Under the pieces are notes generated by a model. The model made no database searches and had not been told where the DNA came from. It was given only the letters and a program-made list of their open reading frames with translations. A stretch of 64,000 nucleotides of DNA from assembly GCA_944376845.1 (NCBI GenBank), contig CALWDZ010000003.1, positions 59,758 through 123,757 of the forward strand, given 5' to 3'. The first letter of the stretch is position 1; each line of letters starts with the position of its first letter. Position numbers and translations under genes: made by a program. The stretch comes from an uncultured Clostridia bacterium (GTDB taxonomy: Bacteria; Bacillota; Clostridia; Christensenellales; UBA1242). Shown here one piece after another: positions 37,613 to 44,965 of the stretch.

Positions 37613-40234
37613 ATGACAAAGTATGTTTATCTTTTTAGTGAAGGCAATGCGTCTATGCGTAACCTTCTAGGTGGCAAAGGTGCAAACTTAGCCGAAATGA
37701 CAAATATTGGGCTTCCAGTGCCACAAGGTTTCACAGTTACAACAGAGGCTTGTACAAAGTATTATGATGATGGCAAGGTGCTTAATGACGAAGTTATTTC
37801 GCAGGTAGAAGCAGGACTTAAAAAACTAGAAGAAATTACAGGCAAAAAGTTTGGTGACAAAAAAAATCCATTACTTGTTTCTGTTCGTTCAGGGGCAAGG
37901 GCGTCTATGCCTGGAATGATGGATACAATACTTAATCTTGGAATAAATGATGAAGTTGTTGTTGGGCTTAGTGAACTTACAGGAAATGAACGCTTTGCCT
38001 ATGATAGTTATAGAAGATTTATTCAAATGTTCAGTGACGTTGTTATGGGGCTTGATAAGAGTAAATTCGAAAGAATTATCGATGAAATGAAAGAGAAAAA
38101 AGGCATTAAACTTGATATAGAGTTTACTGCAGAAGACCTTAAAGAAATGGTTGTAAAATTTAAAGAATTTTACAAAAAAGAGATGAAATCAGATTTTCCA
38201 ACTGATCCAAAAACTCAACTTATTGAGGCAGTGAAAGCGGTGTTTAGGTCATGGGATAATCCAAGAGCAAATGTTTATCGCCGTATGAATGATATACCTT
38301 CAAGTTGGGGTACAGCGGTAAATGTTCAAACTATGGTGTTCGGCAATATGGGCGAAACCAGCGGTACTGGTGTTGCATTTACTCGTAACCCAGCAACTGG
38401 TGAGAAAAAACTTTTTGGTGAATATCTTATGAATGCACAGGGTGAAGATGTTGTTGCGGGAATAAGAACACCAAATCCAATTTCAACTCTTGAAAAACAA
38501 AATCCAGAGATATATAAGCAATTTATTGAAATTTGTGAAACACTTGAAAATCACTACAATGATATGCAAGATATGGAGTTTACAATTGAAAAAGGTAAAC
38601 TTTATATGCTTCAAACCCGTAATGGCAAGCGTACAGCAAAAGCCGCACTAAAAATTGCTGTTGATCTTGTTAATGAAGGTAGAATAAATAAAGAACAAGC
38701 ACTACTTATGCTTGACCCTAAACAACTTGATGCACTTTTGCATCCAACTTTTGATGAAAAGGACCTTAAAAATGCAGAAGTTATTGCTCATGGTCTTCCA
38801 GCATCCCCAGGTGCTGCAACTGGTAAAATTGTGTTTACAGCAGAAAGAGCAAAAGAACTTAGTTCAAATAAAGAAAAAGTTGTTCTTGTTCGTCTTGAAA
38901 CATCTCCAGAAGATATAGAAGGTATGGCAGTTAGTCAAGGTGTTTTGACAGCACGTGGTGGTATGACATCACACGCAGCAGTTGTAGCACGTGGTATGGG
39001 AACAGCATGCGTTGCAGGTTGCAGTAGCCTTTCTGTTGATGAGGATAATAAAGTTTGTACAATTTCTGGAAAGACATATCACGAAGGTGATGAAATTGCT
39101 TTTGACGGTTCAACAGGTAACGTCTATGGCAGAAAGATAGATACAAAACCAGCCGAAGTTTCTGGTGATTTTGCTACTATTATGGAATGGGCAGATAATG
39201 CACGAAGACTACAAGTCCGTACCAATGCCGACAATCCACGTGATGCAGAAGTAGCGTATAAGTTTGGAGCAGAAGGTATTGGACTATGCAGAACAGAGCA
39301 TATGTTTTTTGAGACAGATCGTATTCCAGCAGTTAGAGAAATGATTGTTTCATCTACTGTAGAAGAGAGAGAAAAAGCACTTGCCAAACTTCTTCCTATG
39401 CAAAGAAAAGATTTCATAGGACTATATAAAGCAATGAAAGGAAAGCCAGTTACTATAAGGTTTTTGGACCCACCTCTACATGAATTTTTGCCACACACAG
39501 ATGAAGAAATTCGTACACTTGCAAAAGATATGGGCTTGACTTTTGATAAACTTAAACACACAGTTGAAAGTTTGCATGAATTTAATCCAATGATGGGTCA
39601 CCGTGGACTTAGACTTGCTGTAACATATCCAGAAATAGCAAGAATGCAGACACGTGCAGTCATCGAGGCAGCACTAACAGTTAAAAAAGAGGATGGTTAT
39701 GATATTCATCCAGAGATTATGATACCACTCACTTGTGAGGCAAAAGAATTTAACTATGTTCGCGACATTGTTGCACAAACCGCAGATGAAGTAATCAAAT
39801 CTAGTGGCGAAAAACTTGACTACAAAATTGGTACAATGATTGAAATTCCTCGTGCAGCACTTACAGCCGATGAAATTGCAAAGACGGCGGAATTCTTCTC
39901 ATTTGGAACAAATGACCTTACTCAAATGACTTTTGGTTTCAGTCGTGATGATGCTGGTAAATTCTTAGACGCATATTACGATAAAAAGTTATTTGATAGC
40001 GACCCATTTGCTCATGTTGACCAAAAAGGTGTTGGCAAACTTGTAGATATGGCAGTTAAACTTGGAAAAAGTACAAGACCAAATATAAAACTCGGTGTCT
40101 GTGGAGAACATGGTGGTGACCCTCAATCTATTGATTTCTTCCACAGAGTAGGGTTAACATATGTTTCTTGCTCACCATATCGTGTGCCAATCGCACGCCT
40201 TGCCGCAGCACAAGCAGCAATTAGGAATAAATAA
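37613..40234 (+). CDS. ppdK: pyruvate, phosphate dikinase
   Basis: MTKYVYLF..GGKGANLAEM, phospho-His region GGMTSHAAVVARGMG, C-terminal PEP-utilising domain. RBS GGAGGA. Confidence 0.95.
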   Translation: MTKYVYLFSEGNASMRNLLGGKGANLAEMTNIGLPVPQGFTVTTEACTKYYDDGKVLNDEVISQVEAGLKKLEEITGKKFGDKKNPLLVSVRSGARASMPGMMDTILNLGINDEVVVGLSELTGNERFAYDSYRRFIQMFSDVVMGLDKSKFERIIDEMKEKKGIKLDIEFTAEDLKEMVVKFKEFYKKEMKSDFPTDPKTQLIEAVKAVFRSWDNPRANVYRRMNDIPSSWGTAVNVQTMVFGNMGETSGTGVAFTRNPATGEKKLFGEYLMNAQGEDVVAGIRTPNPISTLEKQNPEIYKQFIEICETLENHYNDMQDMEFTIEKGKLYMLQTRNGKRTAKAALKIAVDLVNEGRINKEQALLMLDPKQLDALLHPTFDEKDLKNAEVIAHGLPASPGAATGKIVFTAERAKELSSNKEKVVLVRLETSPEDIEGMAVSQGVLTARGGMTSHAAVVARGMGTACVAGCSSLSVDEDNKVCTISGKTYHEGDEIAFDGSTGNVYGRKIDTKPAEVSGDFATIMEWADNARRLQVRTNADNPRDAEVAYKFGAEGIGLCRTEHMFFETDRIPAVREMIVSSTVEEREKALAKLLPMQRKDFIGLYKAMKGKPVTIRFLDPPLHEFLPHTDEEIRTLAKDMGLTFDKLKHTVESLHEFNPMMGHRGLRLAVTYPEIARMQTRAVIEAALTVKKEDGYDIHPEIMIPLTCEAKEFNYVRDIVAQTADEVIKSSGEKLDYKIGTMIEIPRAALTADEIAKTAEFFSFGTNDLTQMTFGFSRDDAGKFLDAYYDKKLFDSDPFAHVDQKGVGKLVDMAVKLGKSTRPNIKLGVCGEHGGDPQSIDFFHRVGLTYVSCSPYRVPIARLAAAQAAIRNK

Positions 40235-40242
40235 TTGACAAC

Positions 40243-40271
40243 GAAATTTATTTGTGATAATATTCCAATAA
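40243..40271 (+). promoter_or_regulatory. near-consensus promoter TTGACA-17 nt-TAATAT for the precursor peptide
   Basis: -35 at 40243-40248 and -10 at 40266-40271, directly after the ppdK stop. Confidence 0.6.
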
Positions 40272-40282
40272 GGAGGGTGAAG

Positions 40283-40399
40283 ATGCAATCTTTAGTATTA
40301 AAATTTTTCTCATCAGCAATGATAAAGAAAAACACCTCACGCATTGTCACACAGGCAAGAGGGGAAGCGACATGGGCTTGTGGCATTGATGAATGTTAA
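40283..40399 (+). CDS. 38-aa candidate RiPP precursor MQSLVLKFFSSAMIKKNTSRIVTQARGEATWACGIDEC
   Basis: Strong RBS AAGGAGGG lies 5 nt upstream. C-terminal Cys-x5-Cys core. Immediately upstream of the radical SAM/SPASM gene. Confidence 0.6.
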   Translation: MQSLVLKFFSSAMIKKNTSRIVTQARGEATWACGIDEC

Positions 40400-40412
40400 A
40401 AACTAAATAGTT

Positions 40413-40455
40413 AAAATATCTGGTCATTTTAGTTTTTAAAATGACCGGATATTTT
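40413..40455 (+). terminator. 18-bp hairpin (attenuator/partial terminator) between precursor and maturase
   Basis: AAAATATCTGGTCATTTT-AGTTTTT-AAAATGACCGGATATTTT with one G-U pair. Confidence 0.6.
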
Positions 40456-40472
40456 TGTATAAAGGAGAAAAG

Positions 40473-41714
40473 ATGTACAATATAAAATCTGGCACAAGGA
40501 TGGTGCAAACCTTAAAAAATAAAAAGGATAAAGTGTTCACATTATATAACAATTCTATAAATAAAAGTATTGAGATAAATTATATGGGGGCTCGGTTGTT
40601 GCGACTTATTAAAAATAAAAGTTTGAAAATTGAAAATTTATTAGGACTTTCTTTTATACAAGAACTGATACAGTTAAATTTTATTACAAACGAAGAAAAT
40701 AGTAATGTAATGCTTTCAAAAAAATGTCACTATAAATATCCATTAACATCAATATCTTTGGAATTAACCAATCAATGTAACTTAAACTGTGTGCATTGTT
40801 ATGGTAGTTATGGCGCAAATGTTAAGGGATGTTTTCTGCCTTTTGATTGGATAAAAAATAATTTATCTGAATTTAATAAATTAAATGTTTTAAAAATTGC
40901 TCTCACTGGTGGAGAATCTACTCTACATCCTGATTTTTTAAAAATTGTGGATTTCATACTTTCTAACGGATTCGAATTGTGTGTTTTTACTAACGGTTTC
41001 AATACTAACATTATTAAGCAAATGCTTAAAAATACAAAACAATATCATTATGTGGTAAAAGTTAGTTGTGATGGGCCAGAGCAAATACATAACAAAATAA
41101 GGAGGAGTCCATATTCTTTTTTTAGGGTAATTGAAACACTAGATATATTAAAAAAATATCCAAATATAACAACTTATATATCAACCGCAGTTATGCCCGC
41201 AAATATAGATTATATTAGTGATTTTAAGAAATATATAAAGCGCAACTATCCTAATTTTATCCATACTTTAGATTTGGTATTTCCGTCAGGAAATGGTAAA
41301 GATAACTATTTTAGTTTACAAGAACTAAAAAATGTAAAAAAACAAATTCCTGAATTATTTAATTATTCTGAAGGGAATCATAGCAGATTTAGATGTTCTG
41401 GAGGAGTTAATCAATGCACAATTAGTCCAGATGGAACAATGAAAATTTGTAATGCCGCTTGTGCAGATGCGTTTGCTTTTAAATCTAATGTTTTTGATTT
41501 ATCTTTGAGAAAAGCCTGGCTTCATGGTGGAAAAAATATTTCATATTTTCGTAAGGAAAAATTTAAAAATACAAAAGATTGTGTAAATTGTAAAATAAGG
41601 TCAATATGCAAAATGAACGATTGCAGAGTAATGGCTTACTTTTATAAAGGAGATATACATTGTAGTAATCCAATCACTTGCATATCCGCCCAAAATTATT
41701 TTAAACAGTCGTAA
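40473..41714 (+). CDS. radical SAM/SPASM-domain peptide maturase with N-terminal PqqD-like recognition element
   Basis: CNLNCVHC (Cx3Cx2C) and C-terminal CVNCKIRSICKMNDC plus additional Cys clusters. RBS AAGGAGAAAAG precedes the ATG at 40473. Confidence 0.8.
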   Translation: MYNIKSGTRMVQTLKNKKDKVFTLYNNSINKSIEINYMGARLLRLIKNKSLKIENLLGLSFIQELIQLNFITNEENSNVMLSKKCHYKYPLTSISLELTNQCNLNCVHCYGSYGANVKGCFLPFDWIKNNLSEFNKLNVLKIALTGGESTLHPDFLKIVDFILSNGFELCVFTNGFNTNIIKQMLKNTKQYHYVVKVSCDGPEQIHNKIRRSPYSFFRVIETLDILKKYPNITTYISTAVMPANIDYISDFKKYIKRNYPNFIHTLDLVFPSGNGKDNYFSLQELKNVKKQIPELFNYSEGNHSRFRCSGGVNQCTISPDGTMKICNAACADAFAFKSNVFDLSLRKAWLHGGKNISYFRKEKFKNTKDCVNCKIRSICKMNDCRVMAYFYKGDIHCSNPITCISAQNYFKQS

Positions 41715-41730
41715 TTAGGAGAAAAATTCT

Positions 41731-42204
41731 ATGGAAGAATTAAGAACACTTAACACAACATTAACAGTATTTTTTAAAGATAACAAAATACTTCTTGGTG
41801 AAAAGAAAAGGGGGTTTGCAAAAGGTACATTAAATGGTATCGGGGGTAAGCAAGACGAAGGCGAAACCATTGACGAGGCAATGATAAGAGAATGTCAAGA
41901 AGAAATTGGAGTAACACCTATAGATTATGTTTTGATAGGAAAAATTCATTTTGATGTATGGTACAAGGGCGAACGTGTAAATATGTATATGCATGTTTAC
42001 ACTTGCACAAAATTTGATGGTGAAATAATAGAAACTGAAGAAATGCTTCCAAAGTGGTACGACATAGACAATATACCATATGAAAAAATGCTAGCAGATG
42101 ACCTTTTGTGGATGCCTATGGCACTTGAAGGGAAACAATTCGTTGGAGATGTTAAGTTTGATAAAAATATGAAGATGCTAAGTCATGACTTTAAAGAAAT
42201 TTAA
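41731..42204 (+). CDS. NUDIX hydrolase (MutT-like)
   Basis: Nudix box GIGGKQDEGETIDEAMIRECQEEIGV. Confidence 0.85.
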   Translation: MEELRTLNTTLTVFFKDNKILLGEKKRGFAKGTLNGIGGKQDEGETIDEAMIRECQEEIGVTPIDYVLIGKIHFDVWYKGERVNMYMHVYTCTKFDGEIIETEEMLPKWYDIDNIPYEKMLADDLLWMPMALEGKQFVGDVKFDKNMKMLSHDFKEI

Positions 42205-42273
42205 TTCAAGGTTTGTCAATAAGTTTAAACAAGAAATCTCTTATAAATATTCAACTTTTATTAGTCAAAAAAA

Positions 42274-43005
42274 TTGAATTATGATACACTTATATACAAG
42301 GGGATAAGTATGATAGAAAGTTTGATATTTGGAGCATTAAGCATAGTTTTTTGTATAATTTTTTGTATTTTTAGGGCACAAAAAGCAGACGTGTTTACAT
42401 TAGCATTAAAATCCATTTCTTCTATTTTCTTTATTTTATGTGGCATTTTTGCAATAAATTATGTTTCATCTAGTATATTTAATTTATTTATAATAGCAGG
42501 GCTTGTATTTGGTCTTGTGGGTGATATTATTCTAGATTTGAAAGTTATGTATAATGAAAATAGTGACCAGTATTTTGTATTTGGTACATGTTCATTTATG
42601 ATAGGGCATTTCTTCTATTTTGCAAGCACACTTATATATAACATTGACATGTTGCCAACTCATACCATTTGGAATATTTTGGCATCACTTGGGGTTGCAA
42701 TACTATTGACACTTATAATACTATTATCATCGAAAAAACTCAACATGAACTTTGGGAAAATGAAGTGGCTTGTGGCAGCATATAGTTTTGTACTCACATT
42801 TATGGTGGCATTTTCAATTTCAATTGCAATATTTAGTCCAATATTTTGGATATTTGCCTCGGGAATGATAGTTTTCTTCTTTTCAGACCTTGTACTTTCA
42901 ATGCAATATTTTGGTAATAGGACGGAGAAAGTTTGGATATATATAAATCATATTCTTTATTATGTAGCACAAGTAATGCTTGCTTTATGTGTACTATTTA
43001 TCTAA
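42274..43005 (+). CDS. YhhN/lysoplasmalogenase family membrane protein
   Basis: GLVGDIILD and FFFSDLVLS motifs with about 8 TM helices. Start uncertain. Confidence 0.6.
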   Translation: MNYDTLIYKGISMIESLIFGALSIVFCIIFCIFRAQKADVFTLALKSISSIFFILCGIFAINYVSSSIFNLFIIAGLVFGLVGDIILDLKVMYNENSDQYFVFGTCSFMIGHFFYFASTLIYNIDMLPTHTIWNILASLGVAILLTLIILLSSKKLNMNFGKMKWLVAAYSFVLTFMVAFSISIAIFSPIFWIFASGMIVFFFSDLVLSMQYFGNRTEKVWIYINHILYYVAQVMLALCVLFI

Positions 43006-43237: not shown

Positions 43238-44965
43238 TTACAATGTCATTTCATTGTCTTTTACGTAATGTGCTGTTTCTTTCATAAATTCAGAATACTC
43301 ACTTTCGGTTAAAAGTCCACTTTCTTTAAGATTTTTTAAAAAGCAAACATCATTACGAATTTTTTGCTGTGATTTAATATCCATTGAATAAAAGTAGTTT
43401 CTGATAATTTCAGGACCATTTTTATTTTCTACTTTTACCAACTCGTTTAAAAGTCCATTATAAAAATATTTTGAACGTTGAAGGTGAGGTGATAATTGTT
43501 TTTCATTATTTAGTAAAAAATATACATTATTTCTACACATTTTTTCAAATAATAATTGATTATTTGAAATGCATTTTATAACAAGGTCTGAATTCATATA
43601 GTCTGTAATATCGAAATCATATTGCTCCATAATTTCTAGGTACTGCTTTATAATTTCAATTTTTGCATCATTATTTTTAGGCAGATAATTTTTATCTTCA
43701 TCAAATAATCTTTTAAATAATTCTTGTTTTGGAATTACCTTTTGATAATTGTCGTAAATTTCAGAAGTAGGTGAGAGTACTTGTTGATATATTTCAAAAA
43801 CTTTATAATCATCAGGATAAAAACTAGGTAATTCTACATCATTAACAAAATTTTCTATAAATTTTCTTTGACAAATAGGGAACATATTAAGGTTAAATTG
43901 TGGGATTTTAGAAGATGATAGTTGCTTATTTTTATAATAATTAAAATAAGCACGATTTCTTGAATCACTATACGAATTTGATTTTTCACCTCTATTTTTC
44001 GAGAAAATATCTGAAAATTTTAATGTTTTTAATTTGTCTTTGGATTCGGCAGCATATTTGTCAATTACCATTTTTGAAATCATATTATAAAGTGCTGAAA
44101 AACCTGCTGAAACATTTGAACTAATATAATACCTATCGTTTTTAATTGAATACTCATAGGAACGATAGCAAGCATCAAACAATAACGATAATTTCATAAT
44201 ATCTGATTGAGTTTGATGAAAATTTGAAGCAAGATAATTAATGAAACCATTTACATTCGATGAGAAATAATAATTCATTATTTTTTTCTCATCACAAAAT
44301 TTCAAAATGGCACTAAACATTTTAACAGGAAAGTCATAATATCTTTCATTTACAGGTTCATATCTTTGTGCCAATATTTCGGTGTATGCCTCATTAAGCA
44401 TTGTATGTATGTTTTGCTTAAATATATTCCCCGATGGAAAACATTCTAAATTTGTACATCTAAAACCACATTTATTATCGTTTGCGGAAACCGAATGTAT
44501 CATTTCATGAAGTAATGCATGCGGAAGAAGTGGCGATGATAAATAACTTGCATCTATAGTTATACAATGGCTGTTTGGGTTGTATTTTCCAGCACAGCCC
44601 TTAATGCTTCCAATTTTATAATTAACTGAAGTTAAATTATCGGACATTTTTTCTTGTAATTCGTTTGGCATTTCGGCAATTATATTTAGCATAGAAAGTT
44701 TTGCTATAATAAGGGCATTCTGGAAATGCGTTTTTTCTTGTTGAGAATGTAACTGCTGTTGATAATCTTCATATAAAACATCATCTACAAAAGGTTTTAA
44801 AAAAGCATCTAGTGACTTTGATTTTACGTTTATGAATTTTTCATTTTGTAACTTAAAGTAGGTATATGCTAAATTTTTCTTGTCACGGCAAACAAAAATC
44901 TCATTTCCTTTGTGAGAAAAAGAATAAAGTATGTAATAATTTTTATCCAAATTTTCAAAATTCAT
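43238..44965 (-). CDS. hypothetical protein with HExxH motif (possible metallopeptidase)
   Basis: 575-aa ORF. HALLHEMIHS is the only recognisable motif. Confidence 0.4.
   Translation of the reverse strand: MNFENLDKNYYILYSFSHKGNEIFVCRDKKNLAYTYFKLQNEKFINVKSKSLDAFLKPFVDDVLYEDYQQQLHSQQEKTHFQNALIIAKLSMLNIIAEMPNELQEKMSDNLTSVNYKIGSIKGCAGKYNPNSHCITIDASYLSSPLLPHALLHEMIHSVSANDNKCGFRCTNLECFPSGNIFKQNIHTMLNEAYTEILAQRYEPVNERYYDFPVKMFSAILKFCDEKKIMNYYFSSNVNGFINYLASNFHQTQSDIMKLSLLFDACYRSYEYSIKNDRYYISSNVSAGFSALYNMISKMVIDKYAAESKDKLKTLKFSDIFSKNRGEKSNSYSDSRNRAYFNYYKNKQLSSSKIPQFNLNMFPICQRKFIENFVNDVELPSFYPDDYKVFEIYQQVLSPTSEIYDNYQKVIPKQELFKRLFDEDKNYLPKNNDAKIEIIKQYLEIMEQYDFDITDYMNSDLVIKCISNNQLLFEKMCRNNVYFLLNNEKQLSPHLQRSKYFYNGLLNELVKVENKNGPEIIRNYFYSMDIKSQQKIRNDVCFLKNLKESGLLTESEYSEFMKETAHYVKDNEMTL

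Follow-up and report, generated by a model that had tools for sequence, protein, structure and literature searches.

A putative two-gene cassette for a radical-SAM-modified peptide, and the small unnamed family to which it appears to belong, in uncultured Clostridia

Radical S-adenosylmethionine (SAM) enzymes carrying a SPASM domain have been a main source of new peptide cross-linking chemistry, with most of the families that can be predicted still uncharacterised. In Bacillus subtilis, the maturase SkfB combines an N-terminal recognition domain with a radical SAM core and installs Cys-donor thioethers on SkfA, the small precursor of the sporulation killing factor sactipeptide, encoded just upstream. 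The SCIFF maturase CteB and the ranthipeptide maturase PapB, found mostly in Clostridia, share an architecture in which the recognition element typical of peptides made by the ribosome and modified after translation (RiPPs) is followed by radical SAM and SPASM domains, and their precursors contain cysteines with acidic or hydroxyl acceptors; SCIFF-type systems commonly consist of the precursor gene and its maturase only. The streptide operon comprises three genes, StrA, StrB and StrC, for a precursor with a short C-terminal Trp-containing core, a radical SAM/SPASM enzyme and a transporter, while in mycofactocin biosynthesis the SPASM enzyme MftC acts at the extreme C-terminus of a short peptide. 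The locus described here lies on the forward strand of a 64-kb stretch of DNA from an uncultured Clostridia bacterium (hereafter the window, meaning the whole stretch) and has the general features of these systems, namely a CxxxCxxC motif, a seven-Cys SPASM domain and a co-conserved small precursor gene, with the modification of the peptide itself being predicted. On balance it is probably a functional-looking two-gene cassette for a radical-SAM-modified RiPP (RaS-RiPP), forming part of a small, previously unnamed family and working by the mechanism proposed below, and it is highly probable from the sequences compared that the precursor open reading frame (ORF) and the maturase are a genuine pair. 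The interpretation as a RiPP precursor with its radical SAM/SPASM maturase had been put forward in a first-pass annotation of the window, and is now supported by co-conservation and by family placement. The features on which the argument is built are the following.

40235..40263, + strand: putative sigma-70-type promoter, with TTGACA at 40235-40240, a 17-nt spacer and TAATAT at 40258-40263
40270..40277, + strand: Shine-Dalgarno sequence AAGGAGGG of the precursor gene, 5 nt upstream of the ATG at 40283
40283..40399, + strand: precursor gene, 38 aa, translation MQSLVLKFFSSAMIKKNTSRIVTQARGEATWACGIDEC
within 40283..40399, + strand: predicted leader (residues ~1-26) and core (~GEATWACGIDEC), with invariant W31, C33 and C-terminal C38 and the acidic residues D36/E37
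40413..40460, + strand: stem-loop and U-run, with a 19-bp stem and 5-nt loop (40413-40455) followed by UUUUUG
40462..40467, + strand: Shine-Dalgarno sequence AAGGAG of the maturase gene
40473..41714, + strand: radical SAM/SPASM maturase, 413 aa (Pfam Radical_SAM, E = 5.9e-18)
40473..40727, + strand: N-terminal domain of the maturase (residues 1-85), modelled as a three-strand, three-helix fold resembling a RiPP recognition element
40749..41372, + strand: radical SAM core (residues ~93-300), with CxxxCxxC at C102/C106/C109 (40776-40799)
41373..41714, + strand: SPASM domain (residues ~301-413), with C308-x12-G-x4-C326, C370-x2-C373-x5-C379-x4-C384 and C403

The pairing of the two genes is carried by the family to which the maturase belongs. 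An exhaustive profile search of 1.84 billion protein representatives returned about 32 full-length clusters (50% identity), each scoring at least 320 bits, with the nearest full-length radical SAM/SPASM outsider at about 176 bits; the nearest outsiders also pass no curated cut-off. A database search with the maturase likewise gave a tight group of about 32 proteins (34-65% identity, E <1e-56), followed by a gap to E ~1e-19. On these scores, the maturase family is taken to be discrete; it is rare and unnamed, and comes from uncultured gut-type Clostridia. In 12 of the 14 family loci reached through the enzyme, an ORF of 29-39 aa lies just upstream of the maturase. The precursors of the family end G-E-[A/T]-x-W-x-C-x-x-[D/E]-x-C-stop or in a close variant, W-x-C-x4-C-stop being invariant, as in ...VEAAWGCGGDCC, ...GGEAAWQCGGECC, ...GETNWACGHESC, ...GEANWVCQGENC, ...GGEATWACGKESC, ...GGNWICMGDNC, ...QGNWICSGESC and ...GEATWACGAGDC. 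Each of the 14 distinct precursors has an acidic residue between its two cysteines; 13 carry it at -3 and the one from locus L163 at -2. The association also held in the opposite direction, when a metagenome collection was scanned with the back-translated motif: there were 57 pattern matches, about the level of chance, and four of these were genuine short, leader-bearing ORFs with a stop, every one of which (4/4) had a family maturase ~70-130 nt downstream. The first-pass annotation had named a lack of conservation of the small ORF beside homologous maturases as a result that would speak against it, and the ORF is conserved there. Between the related loci L088 and L091, core codons 25-37 show 11 synonymous changes and a single Asp-to-Glu replacement; since the core codons of close relatives differ almost only synonymously, the precursor core appears to be under purifying selection.

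In the window itself, translation confirmed that the unannotated ORF at 40283-40399 encodes a 38-residue Cys-containing peptide, as had been claimed, with a C-terminal end reading ...GEATWACGIDEC. Translating the window in all six frames yields a single instance of W.C....C-stop, where 0.08 would be expected by chance. None of the family precursors was matched by the NCBIfam peptide models, and about 10 precursor clusters, none of them named, were found in a database of 5.8 billion protein clusters when N-terminally extended precursor ORFs were used as queries. A literature search with six core strings gave two chance nucleotide matches and nothing else, and no description of the motif was found in the literature searched. 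In public gene calls the 38-aa precursor is omitted, and an 87-aa antisense ORF overlapping the end of ppdK and the precursor gene is called in its place (window 40123-40386, - strand; 4651-4914 in L094-L098), which is almost certainly spurious. Because such calls miss the precursor or report the antisense frame, mining at the level of the family needs motif-based searches. Several side observations were made in the course of these searches. The maturases of L002 and L003 share 33-34% identity with the window enzyme and have no W-x-C-x4-C ORF beside them; L003 has another Cys-terminated ORF and a frameshifted maturase, L002 an IS110-like transposase upstream, and both were treated as a divergent or degraded subclade. 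Maturase genes are split into two frames at L003 5686-7028 and L117 3444-4687, through a frameshift or an assembly error. The chance pattern matches included an identical open frame of ~55 codons (...GETARTVGEACWRCRGDSCW) in many soil metagenome contigs (L104, L112, L115, L121, L122, L129, L132, L138, L145, L156 and L157); this frame is unrelated to the cassette and is probably part of a non-coding region or RNA gene under strong conservation.

The maturase had been described as a 413-residue enzyme with the cluster motif CNLNCVHC and a Cys-rich SPASM end, and this description stands, given the Radical_SAM match listed above and the cysteines conserved among 29 family members. In this alignment C102, C106 and C109 of the CNLNCVHC motif are invariant, as are C308, C326, C370, C373, C379 and C384, and C403 is kept in at least 90% of the sequences; the Pfam SPASM model scores just below its cut-off (19 bits vs 21.5). 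Since no eighth cysteine is conserved upstream of C308 in the alignment, auxiliary cluster I would have three Cys ligands. An AlphaFold model of the enzyme, with a predicted local distance difference test score (pLDDT) of 92.4, places three strands followed by three helices in residues 9-67 (pLDDT >90), and Pfam PqqD (PF05402) was not detected there. The top Foldseek matches of the model were SkfB, CteB and SuiB, over 406-485 alignment columns, with identities of 15-18% to SkfB and CteB and with the anaerobic sulfatase-maturating enzyme (anSME) also among the matches. A profile search of solved structures returned SkfB at E = 1.9e-28 (the alignment beginning at maturase residue 43), CteB at 5e-9 and anSME at 8e-5. 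Among solved structures, it is the peptide thioether synthases SkfB and CteB that lie nearest to the maturase, rather than any sulfatase or cofactor enzyme. This result, together with the family's own scores of at least 320 bits against ~176 bits for the nearest outsider, also answers the concern in the first-pass annotation that the enzyme might cluster with sulfatase-maturating or cofactor-biosynthesis enzymes. A search of solved structures with the SPASM domain alone, by single sequence and by profile, gave nothing useful, so that no alignment allowed the Cys ligands to be matched to those of CteB or anSME. Among the NCBIfam models there were 62 partial matches, none near its cut-off. The best was TIGR04133 (86.5 bits vs a cut-off of 425), followed by MftC (TIGR03962; 83.5 vs 265, residues 94-405), with lower scores for SkfB (TIGR04403; 62.9 vs 300), AlbA (54.5 vs 850), the ACGX-repeat maturase (TIGR04340; 52 vs 400), WgkB (51.8 vs 650), PapB (51.3 vs 340) and StsB (44.2 vs 625). 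Partial matches to heme- and NirJ-type models were also recorded, and the SCIFF maturase model and anSME TIGR03942 were absent from the best 25 matches.

When compared to the described systems, the cassette seems to work like the sactipeptide, ranthipeptide and streptide operons yet misses every curated family cut-off. SkfB is the best solved-structure match both by sequence and by fold, and the proposed Cys-donor thioether on a small precursor encoded just upstream would be shared with it. In SkfB, nonetheless, a single auxiliary cluster sits in a truncated Twitch domain (PMC10114670), as opposed to the full seven-Cys SPASM domain here, SkfA is unrelated to the window precursor, and the sactipeptide maturase cut-offs (SkfB, AlbA and StsB) are all missed. 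CteB is the second-best fold match, and the window family resembles the ranthipeptides in its precursors, where the acidic residue between the cysteines is a candidate acceptor. The window precursor differs in having two cysteines rather than six, together with an invariant Trp, most loci of the window family add an exporter of the ATP-binding cassette (ABC) type, and the ranthipeptide cut-off is missed (PapB model). The core of the window precursor also contains A-C-G-I, by happenstance; identity with the ACGX-repeat system was rejected, as other cores of the family read GCGG, QCGG, VCQG, ICMG or ICSG, the element is a single copy and not a repeat, and the TIGR04340 score is far too low. The cassette is best regarded as representing a family of its own, new and without a name, among the well-known radical SAM/SPASM-modified peptides. 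Uncharacterised families of this kind are known in their thousands (PMC10288494), so that for a specialist the surprise is moderate; beyond this baseline, the cassette offers a sharply defined motif, a Cys that is obligatory at the C-terminus and, in some loci, the lack of an exporter.

The expression signals of the cassette are compact. The near-consensus promoter and ribosome-binding site reported earlier upstream of 40283 are present where they had been placed; the TTGACA-17-TAATAT site scores 10/12 against the consensus, its spacer ends in TGA, constituting an extended -10 (TGn), and it begins right after the stop codon of ppdK (40232-40234). It is the top-scoring promoter-like site across 39900-42400, although such sites as a class show no enrichment (8 observed vs 14.8 expected in AT-rich DNA), for which reason the match taken alone is weak evidence. 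The three family loci nearest to that of the window (L081, L088 and L091) have a TTGACA-16/17-TAxxAT element 17-19 nt upstream of the precursor ATG, at a position matching that in the window, and a G/A-rich ribosome-binding site, of AGGAGG type in most cases, precedes all nine family precursors examined (9/9). For the hairpin between the two genes, the coordinates 40413-40455 given earlier stand and the stem length of 18 bp does not, the stem having 19 bp. Its folding energy is -22.4 kcal/mol (z = -6.55), with none of 200 shuffled sequences folding equally well. Of 12 family loci, 11 have an equivalent stable hairpin between the precursor and maturase genes, with unrelated sequences and usually with a T-run after it, so that the attenuator hairpin proposed for the window has turned out to be an architectural constant of the family. 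A search of Rfam with 39500-42500 gave only sub-threshold, hairpin-like microRNA matches and no family for the hairpin. It is probably a partial intrinsic terminator or attenuator. Taking the family architecture together with what is generally known of bacteriocin operons, it may be a leaky terminator which sets a high precursor-to-enzyme ratio.

Family loci normally consist of precursor, maturase and ABC exporter. In 15 of the 17 loci with downstream sequence, an exporter of ~530 aa (ABC_membrane + ABC_tran) directly follows the maturase, starting at its stop codon or within a few bases of it. These exporters form one family (29-88% identity) and are similar to peptidase-ABC exporters of bacteriocin type, except that the peptidase domain is missing. 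The first-pass annotation had described a minimal two-gene locus, which holds for the window copy and not for the family; its remark that no protease or exporter is adjacent is correct for the window, where tblastn across the full 64 kb detected no ABC transporter. The exporter is likewise missing from one further clade, L093, which has kept a conserved precursor. From a single unannotated ORF there has come a defined family with an invariant 8-residue signature and a cognate exporter, in which the operon grammar (promoter, precursor, attenuator hairpin, maturase, ABC) is recognisable and ~14 natural core variants constitute a ready substrate panel.

The firm elements of this account are a precursor made up of leader and core, an enzyme in which a modelled recognition-type domain is joined to radical SAM and SPASM domains with their cluster motifs, the co-inheritance of both, and the arrangement of promoter-like site, Shine-Dalgarno sequence and hairpin, and from these we infer the remainder, namely attenuation, leader binding, thioether chemistry, leader removal and a biological role. 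The strong promoter and ribosome-binding site would give high expression of the 38-aa precursor, and the hairpin and U-run after its stop codon would let only a fraction of the transcripts reach the maturase gene, leaving substrate in excess of enzyme. The basic, hydrophobic leader would be bound by the N-terminal recognition domain of the maturase, after which the radical SAM cluster would generate a 5'-deoxyadenosyl radical that abstracts hydrogen within the last ~11 residues (E-A-x-W-x-C-x-x-[D/E]-x-C). One or both of the invariant cysteines could then form a thioether to a carbon of a neighbouring residue. The substrate Cys would probably be bound by auxiliary cluster I, whose set of ligands is incomplete, and the most plausible acceptors are the acidic residue, by analogy to ranthipeptides, and an alpha-carbon, by analogy to sactipeptides. 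A small macrocycle at the C-terminus would result, with the leader possibly removed after the Gly preceding the Glu, and this product might serve as a signal or as a narrow-spectrum antimicrobial. In most relatives, the dedicated peptidase-less ABC exporter would secrete it; since there is no exporter within the 64 kb, the product of the window copy may leave through another transporter or stay inside the cell.

Of the candidate chemistries for the predicted cross-link, a Cys-derived thioether is the likeliest, at about even odds. This chemistry is favoured because the nearest characterised enzymes are thioether synthases, and because the seven rather than eight SPASM cysteines are compatible with a substrate thiolate on auxiliary cluster I, the position that it reportedly takes in CteB. 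It is also favoured because an acidic residue is always near the cysteines, as in the substrates of PapB and QhpD (PMC9413430; PMC10114670; PMC8326336). That SPASM enzymes can make thioethers between Cys and Asp or Glu has been established with PapB and QhpD (PMC9413430; PMC10114670), and those of PapB tolerate varied spacing (PMC9413430). Several observations weigh on the other side. Neither the maturase nor any precursor reaches a curated family cut-off, hence the chemistry is not transferable by homology; identity to SkfB and CteB is as low as noted above, and SuiB, which makes a carbon-carbon bond, and anSME fit the fold almost equally. The acidic residue is shifted in L163, and L001 and L161 lack the upstream Glu, which means that there is no fixed spacing between Cys and acceptor. 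A thioether model offers no evident function for the invariant Trp; the Trp, the variable acidic position and the obligatory terminal Cys all count against a simple thioether. The exporter is missing from the window, and the precursor of one assembly carries a Trp-to-Arg change, so the window copy could be drifting.

The invariant Trp, the varying acidic position and the obligatory terminal Cys keep alive a Trp-centred link or an MftC-like reaction at the C-terminus. Tentatively, and on a view that we hold to be rather unlikely, the family might install a cross-link undescribed for radical SAM enzymes, such as a tryptathionine-like Trp-Cys bond, a bond from Trp to the acidic residue, or a decarboxylative cyclisation of the C-terminal Cys. 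Were this true, the product would be an 11-residue bicyclic peptide, a signal or antimicrobial of uncultured gut Clostridia, and exporter-less copies such as that in the window could reflect intracellular use or a cheater/receiver state. Should its chemistry prove to be an ordinary thioether, the family would be of incremental value, whereas participation of the invariant Trp or the terminal Cys would mean a reaction of a new type.

The first alternative keeps the same gene pair and places the cross-link on tryptophan instead of making a Cys thioether to the carbon of an aliphatic residue; the indole would receive a carbon-carbon or carbon-heteroatom bond of the kind seen in streptide, tryglysin, darobactin and WprB products, or there would be an unprecedented Trp-Cys bond. 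In all precursors the invariant Trp precedes the first Cys by two positions, the Lys-Trp cross-linker SuiB gives the highest TM-score (0.66), and a partial match to WgkB was obtained; the order of precursor, radical SAM gene and transporter resembles the streptide operon, with which the family shares its short Trp-containing core and, in some loci, the presence of peptide-sensing regulators nearby. Nonetheless, the usual partner Lys/Arg is not conserved in the core, and no conserved Lys, and hence no KxxxW arrangement (Lys-x3-Trp), was found in the family core alignment; SuiB shares 14% identity with the maturase, and the WgkB score lies far under its cut-off. Cysteines are irrelevant in streptide and invariant in this family, and two invariant Cys with a seven-Cys SPASM domain suit the thioether synthases better. 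The literature searched held no relevant report of a Trp-Cys link made by a radical SAM enzyme. This alternative is judged unlikely.

It has also to be considered that the cassette in the window is an inactive or decaying remnant, whose exporter was lost or never received and whose secreted product is gone. The general presence of the exporter in the family and its absence from the window agree with this, as do the Trp-to-Arg variant of L098 and a related lineage in which no cassette stands between ppdK and NUDIX. Yet both ORFs are intact with every family-invariant residue, the promoter, Shine-Dalgarno sequence and hairpin are all kept, and the sequence is near-identical across six assemblies. 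The second clade without an exporter, L093, retains its precursor, the exporter could sit elsewhere in the genome, and systems of SCIFF type commonly have no third gene, all of which leaves a remnant decidedly doubtful.

A third proposal is that the enzyme acts on the C-terminal residue, for example by oxidative decarboxylation of the terminal Cys followed by cyclisation, in analogy to MftC acting on the C-terminal Tyr of MftA. It draws on the fact that Cys is always the final residue of the precursor and on the mycofactocin maturase model being the second-best NCBIfam match. The score is far under the 265-bit cut-off, however, there is no separate MftB-like chaperone and no MftD, MftE or MftF gene, the core ends in Cys and not in Gly-Val-Tyr, and StsB shows that resemblance to MftC does not predict MftC chemistry (PMC10288494). 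We regard this reaction as very improbable. Finally, the idea that the enzyme is sulfatase-maturating or cofactor-biosynthetic and the small ORF a chance frame, which could appeal to anSME among the fold matches and to the partial heme- and NirJ-type matches, is barely credible and already contradicted by the evidence, given a small ORF that is conserved, apparently under purifying selection and reciprocally found, a modelled N-terminal recognition-type domain of a kind that anSME is not known to have, an anSME sequence match of only E = 8e-5 with the anSME family score not reached, and a neighbourhood of ppdK and NUDIX without sulfatase or cofactor genes.

Returning to the RaS-RiPP cassette and its surroundings, the NUDIX gene starts 16 nt beyond the maturase stop (window 41714-41731), and as no terminator was found in this short gap, it is probably co-transcribed with the window copy. 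In the related lineage lacking the cassette (Era ~75% identical; L100-L103), the synteny ybeY-era-yqzL-recO-ppdK-NUDIX is kept, with ppdK directly neighbouring NUDIX and a terminator hairpin of its own 260 nt before NUDIX (e.g. L100 4741-5000). The absence of the cassette from this junction marks it as accessory. NUDIX has its own promoter region in this lineage, ppdK is accompanied by a called 48-aa ORF that does not resemble the precursor, and a separate 579-aa radical SAM gene lies ~2 kb downstream (L100 7182-8921).

Elsewhere in the family, an HTH_3 + RNPP_C regulator precedes the locus in L001 (3664-5496), an agrB/histidine kinase/LytTR set lies beside the one in L092 (77-3048), and other helix-turn-helix regulators occur near family loci; these neighbours hint at quorum-sensing control, for which there is precedent in streptococcal RaS-RiPPs and SCIFF peptides (PMC8326336). 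One family locus (L162 7115-9287) adjoins conjugation genes of TraG/type IV secretion system type, which hints at horizontal transfer. Viral contigs yielded no member of the maturase family, the best match there having 28% identity. The host belongs to an uncultured Clostridia lineage whose nearest named Era relative shows 58% identity, and in six independent assemblies of the species the cassette is identical or differs by one base. In one of these cases, the metagenome assembly L098, a T-to-C change at the equivalent of window 40373 converts the invariant Trp31 of the precursor to Arg, either as a sequencing error or through relaxed constraint in an exporter-less copy. Further downstream, window 43238-44965 (- strand) encodes a 575-aa protein with a weak, sub-threshold match to a SprT-like (zinc-metalloprotease-type) Pfam model; it is found at the same position in L094, L095, L097 and L099 and is replaced in L096.

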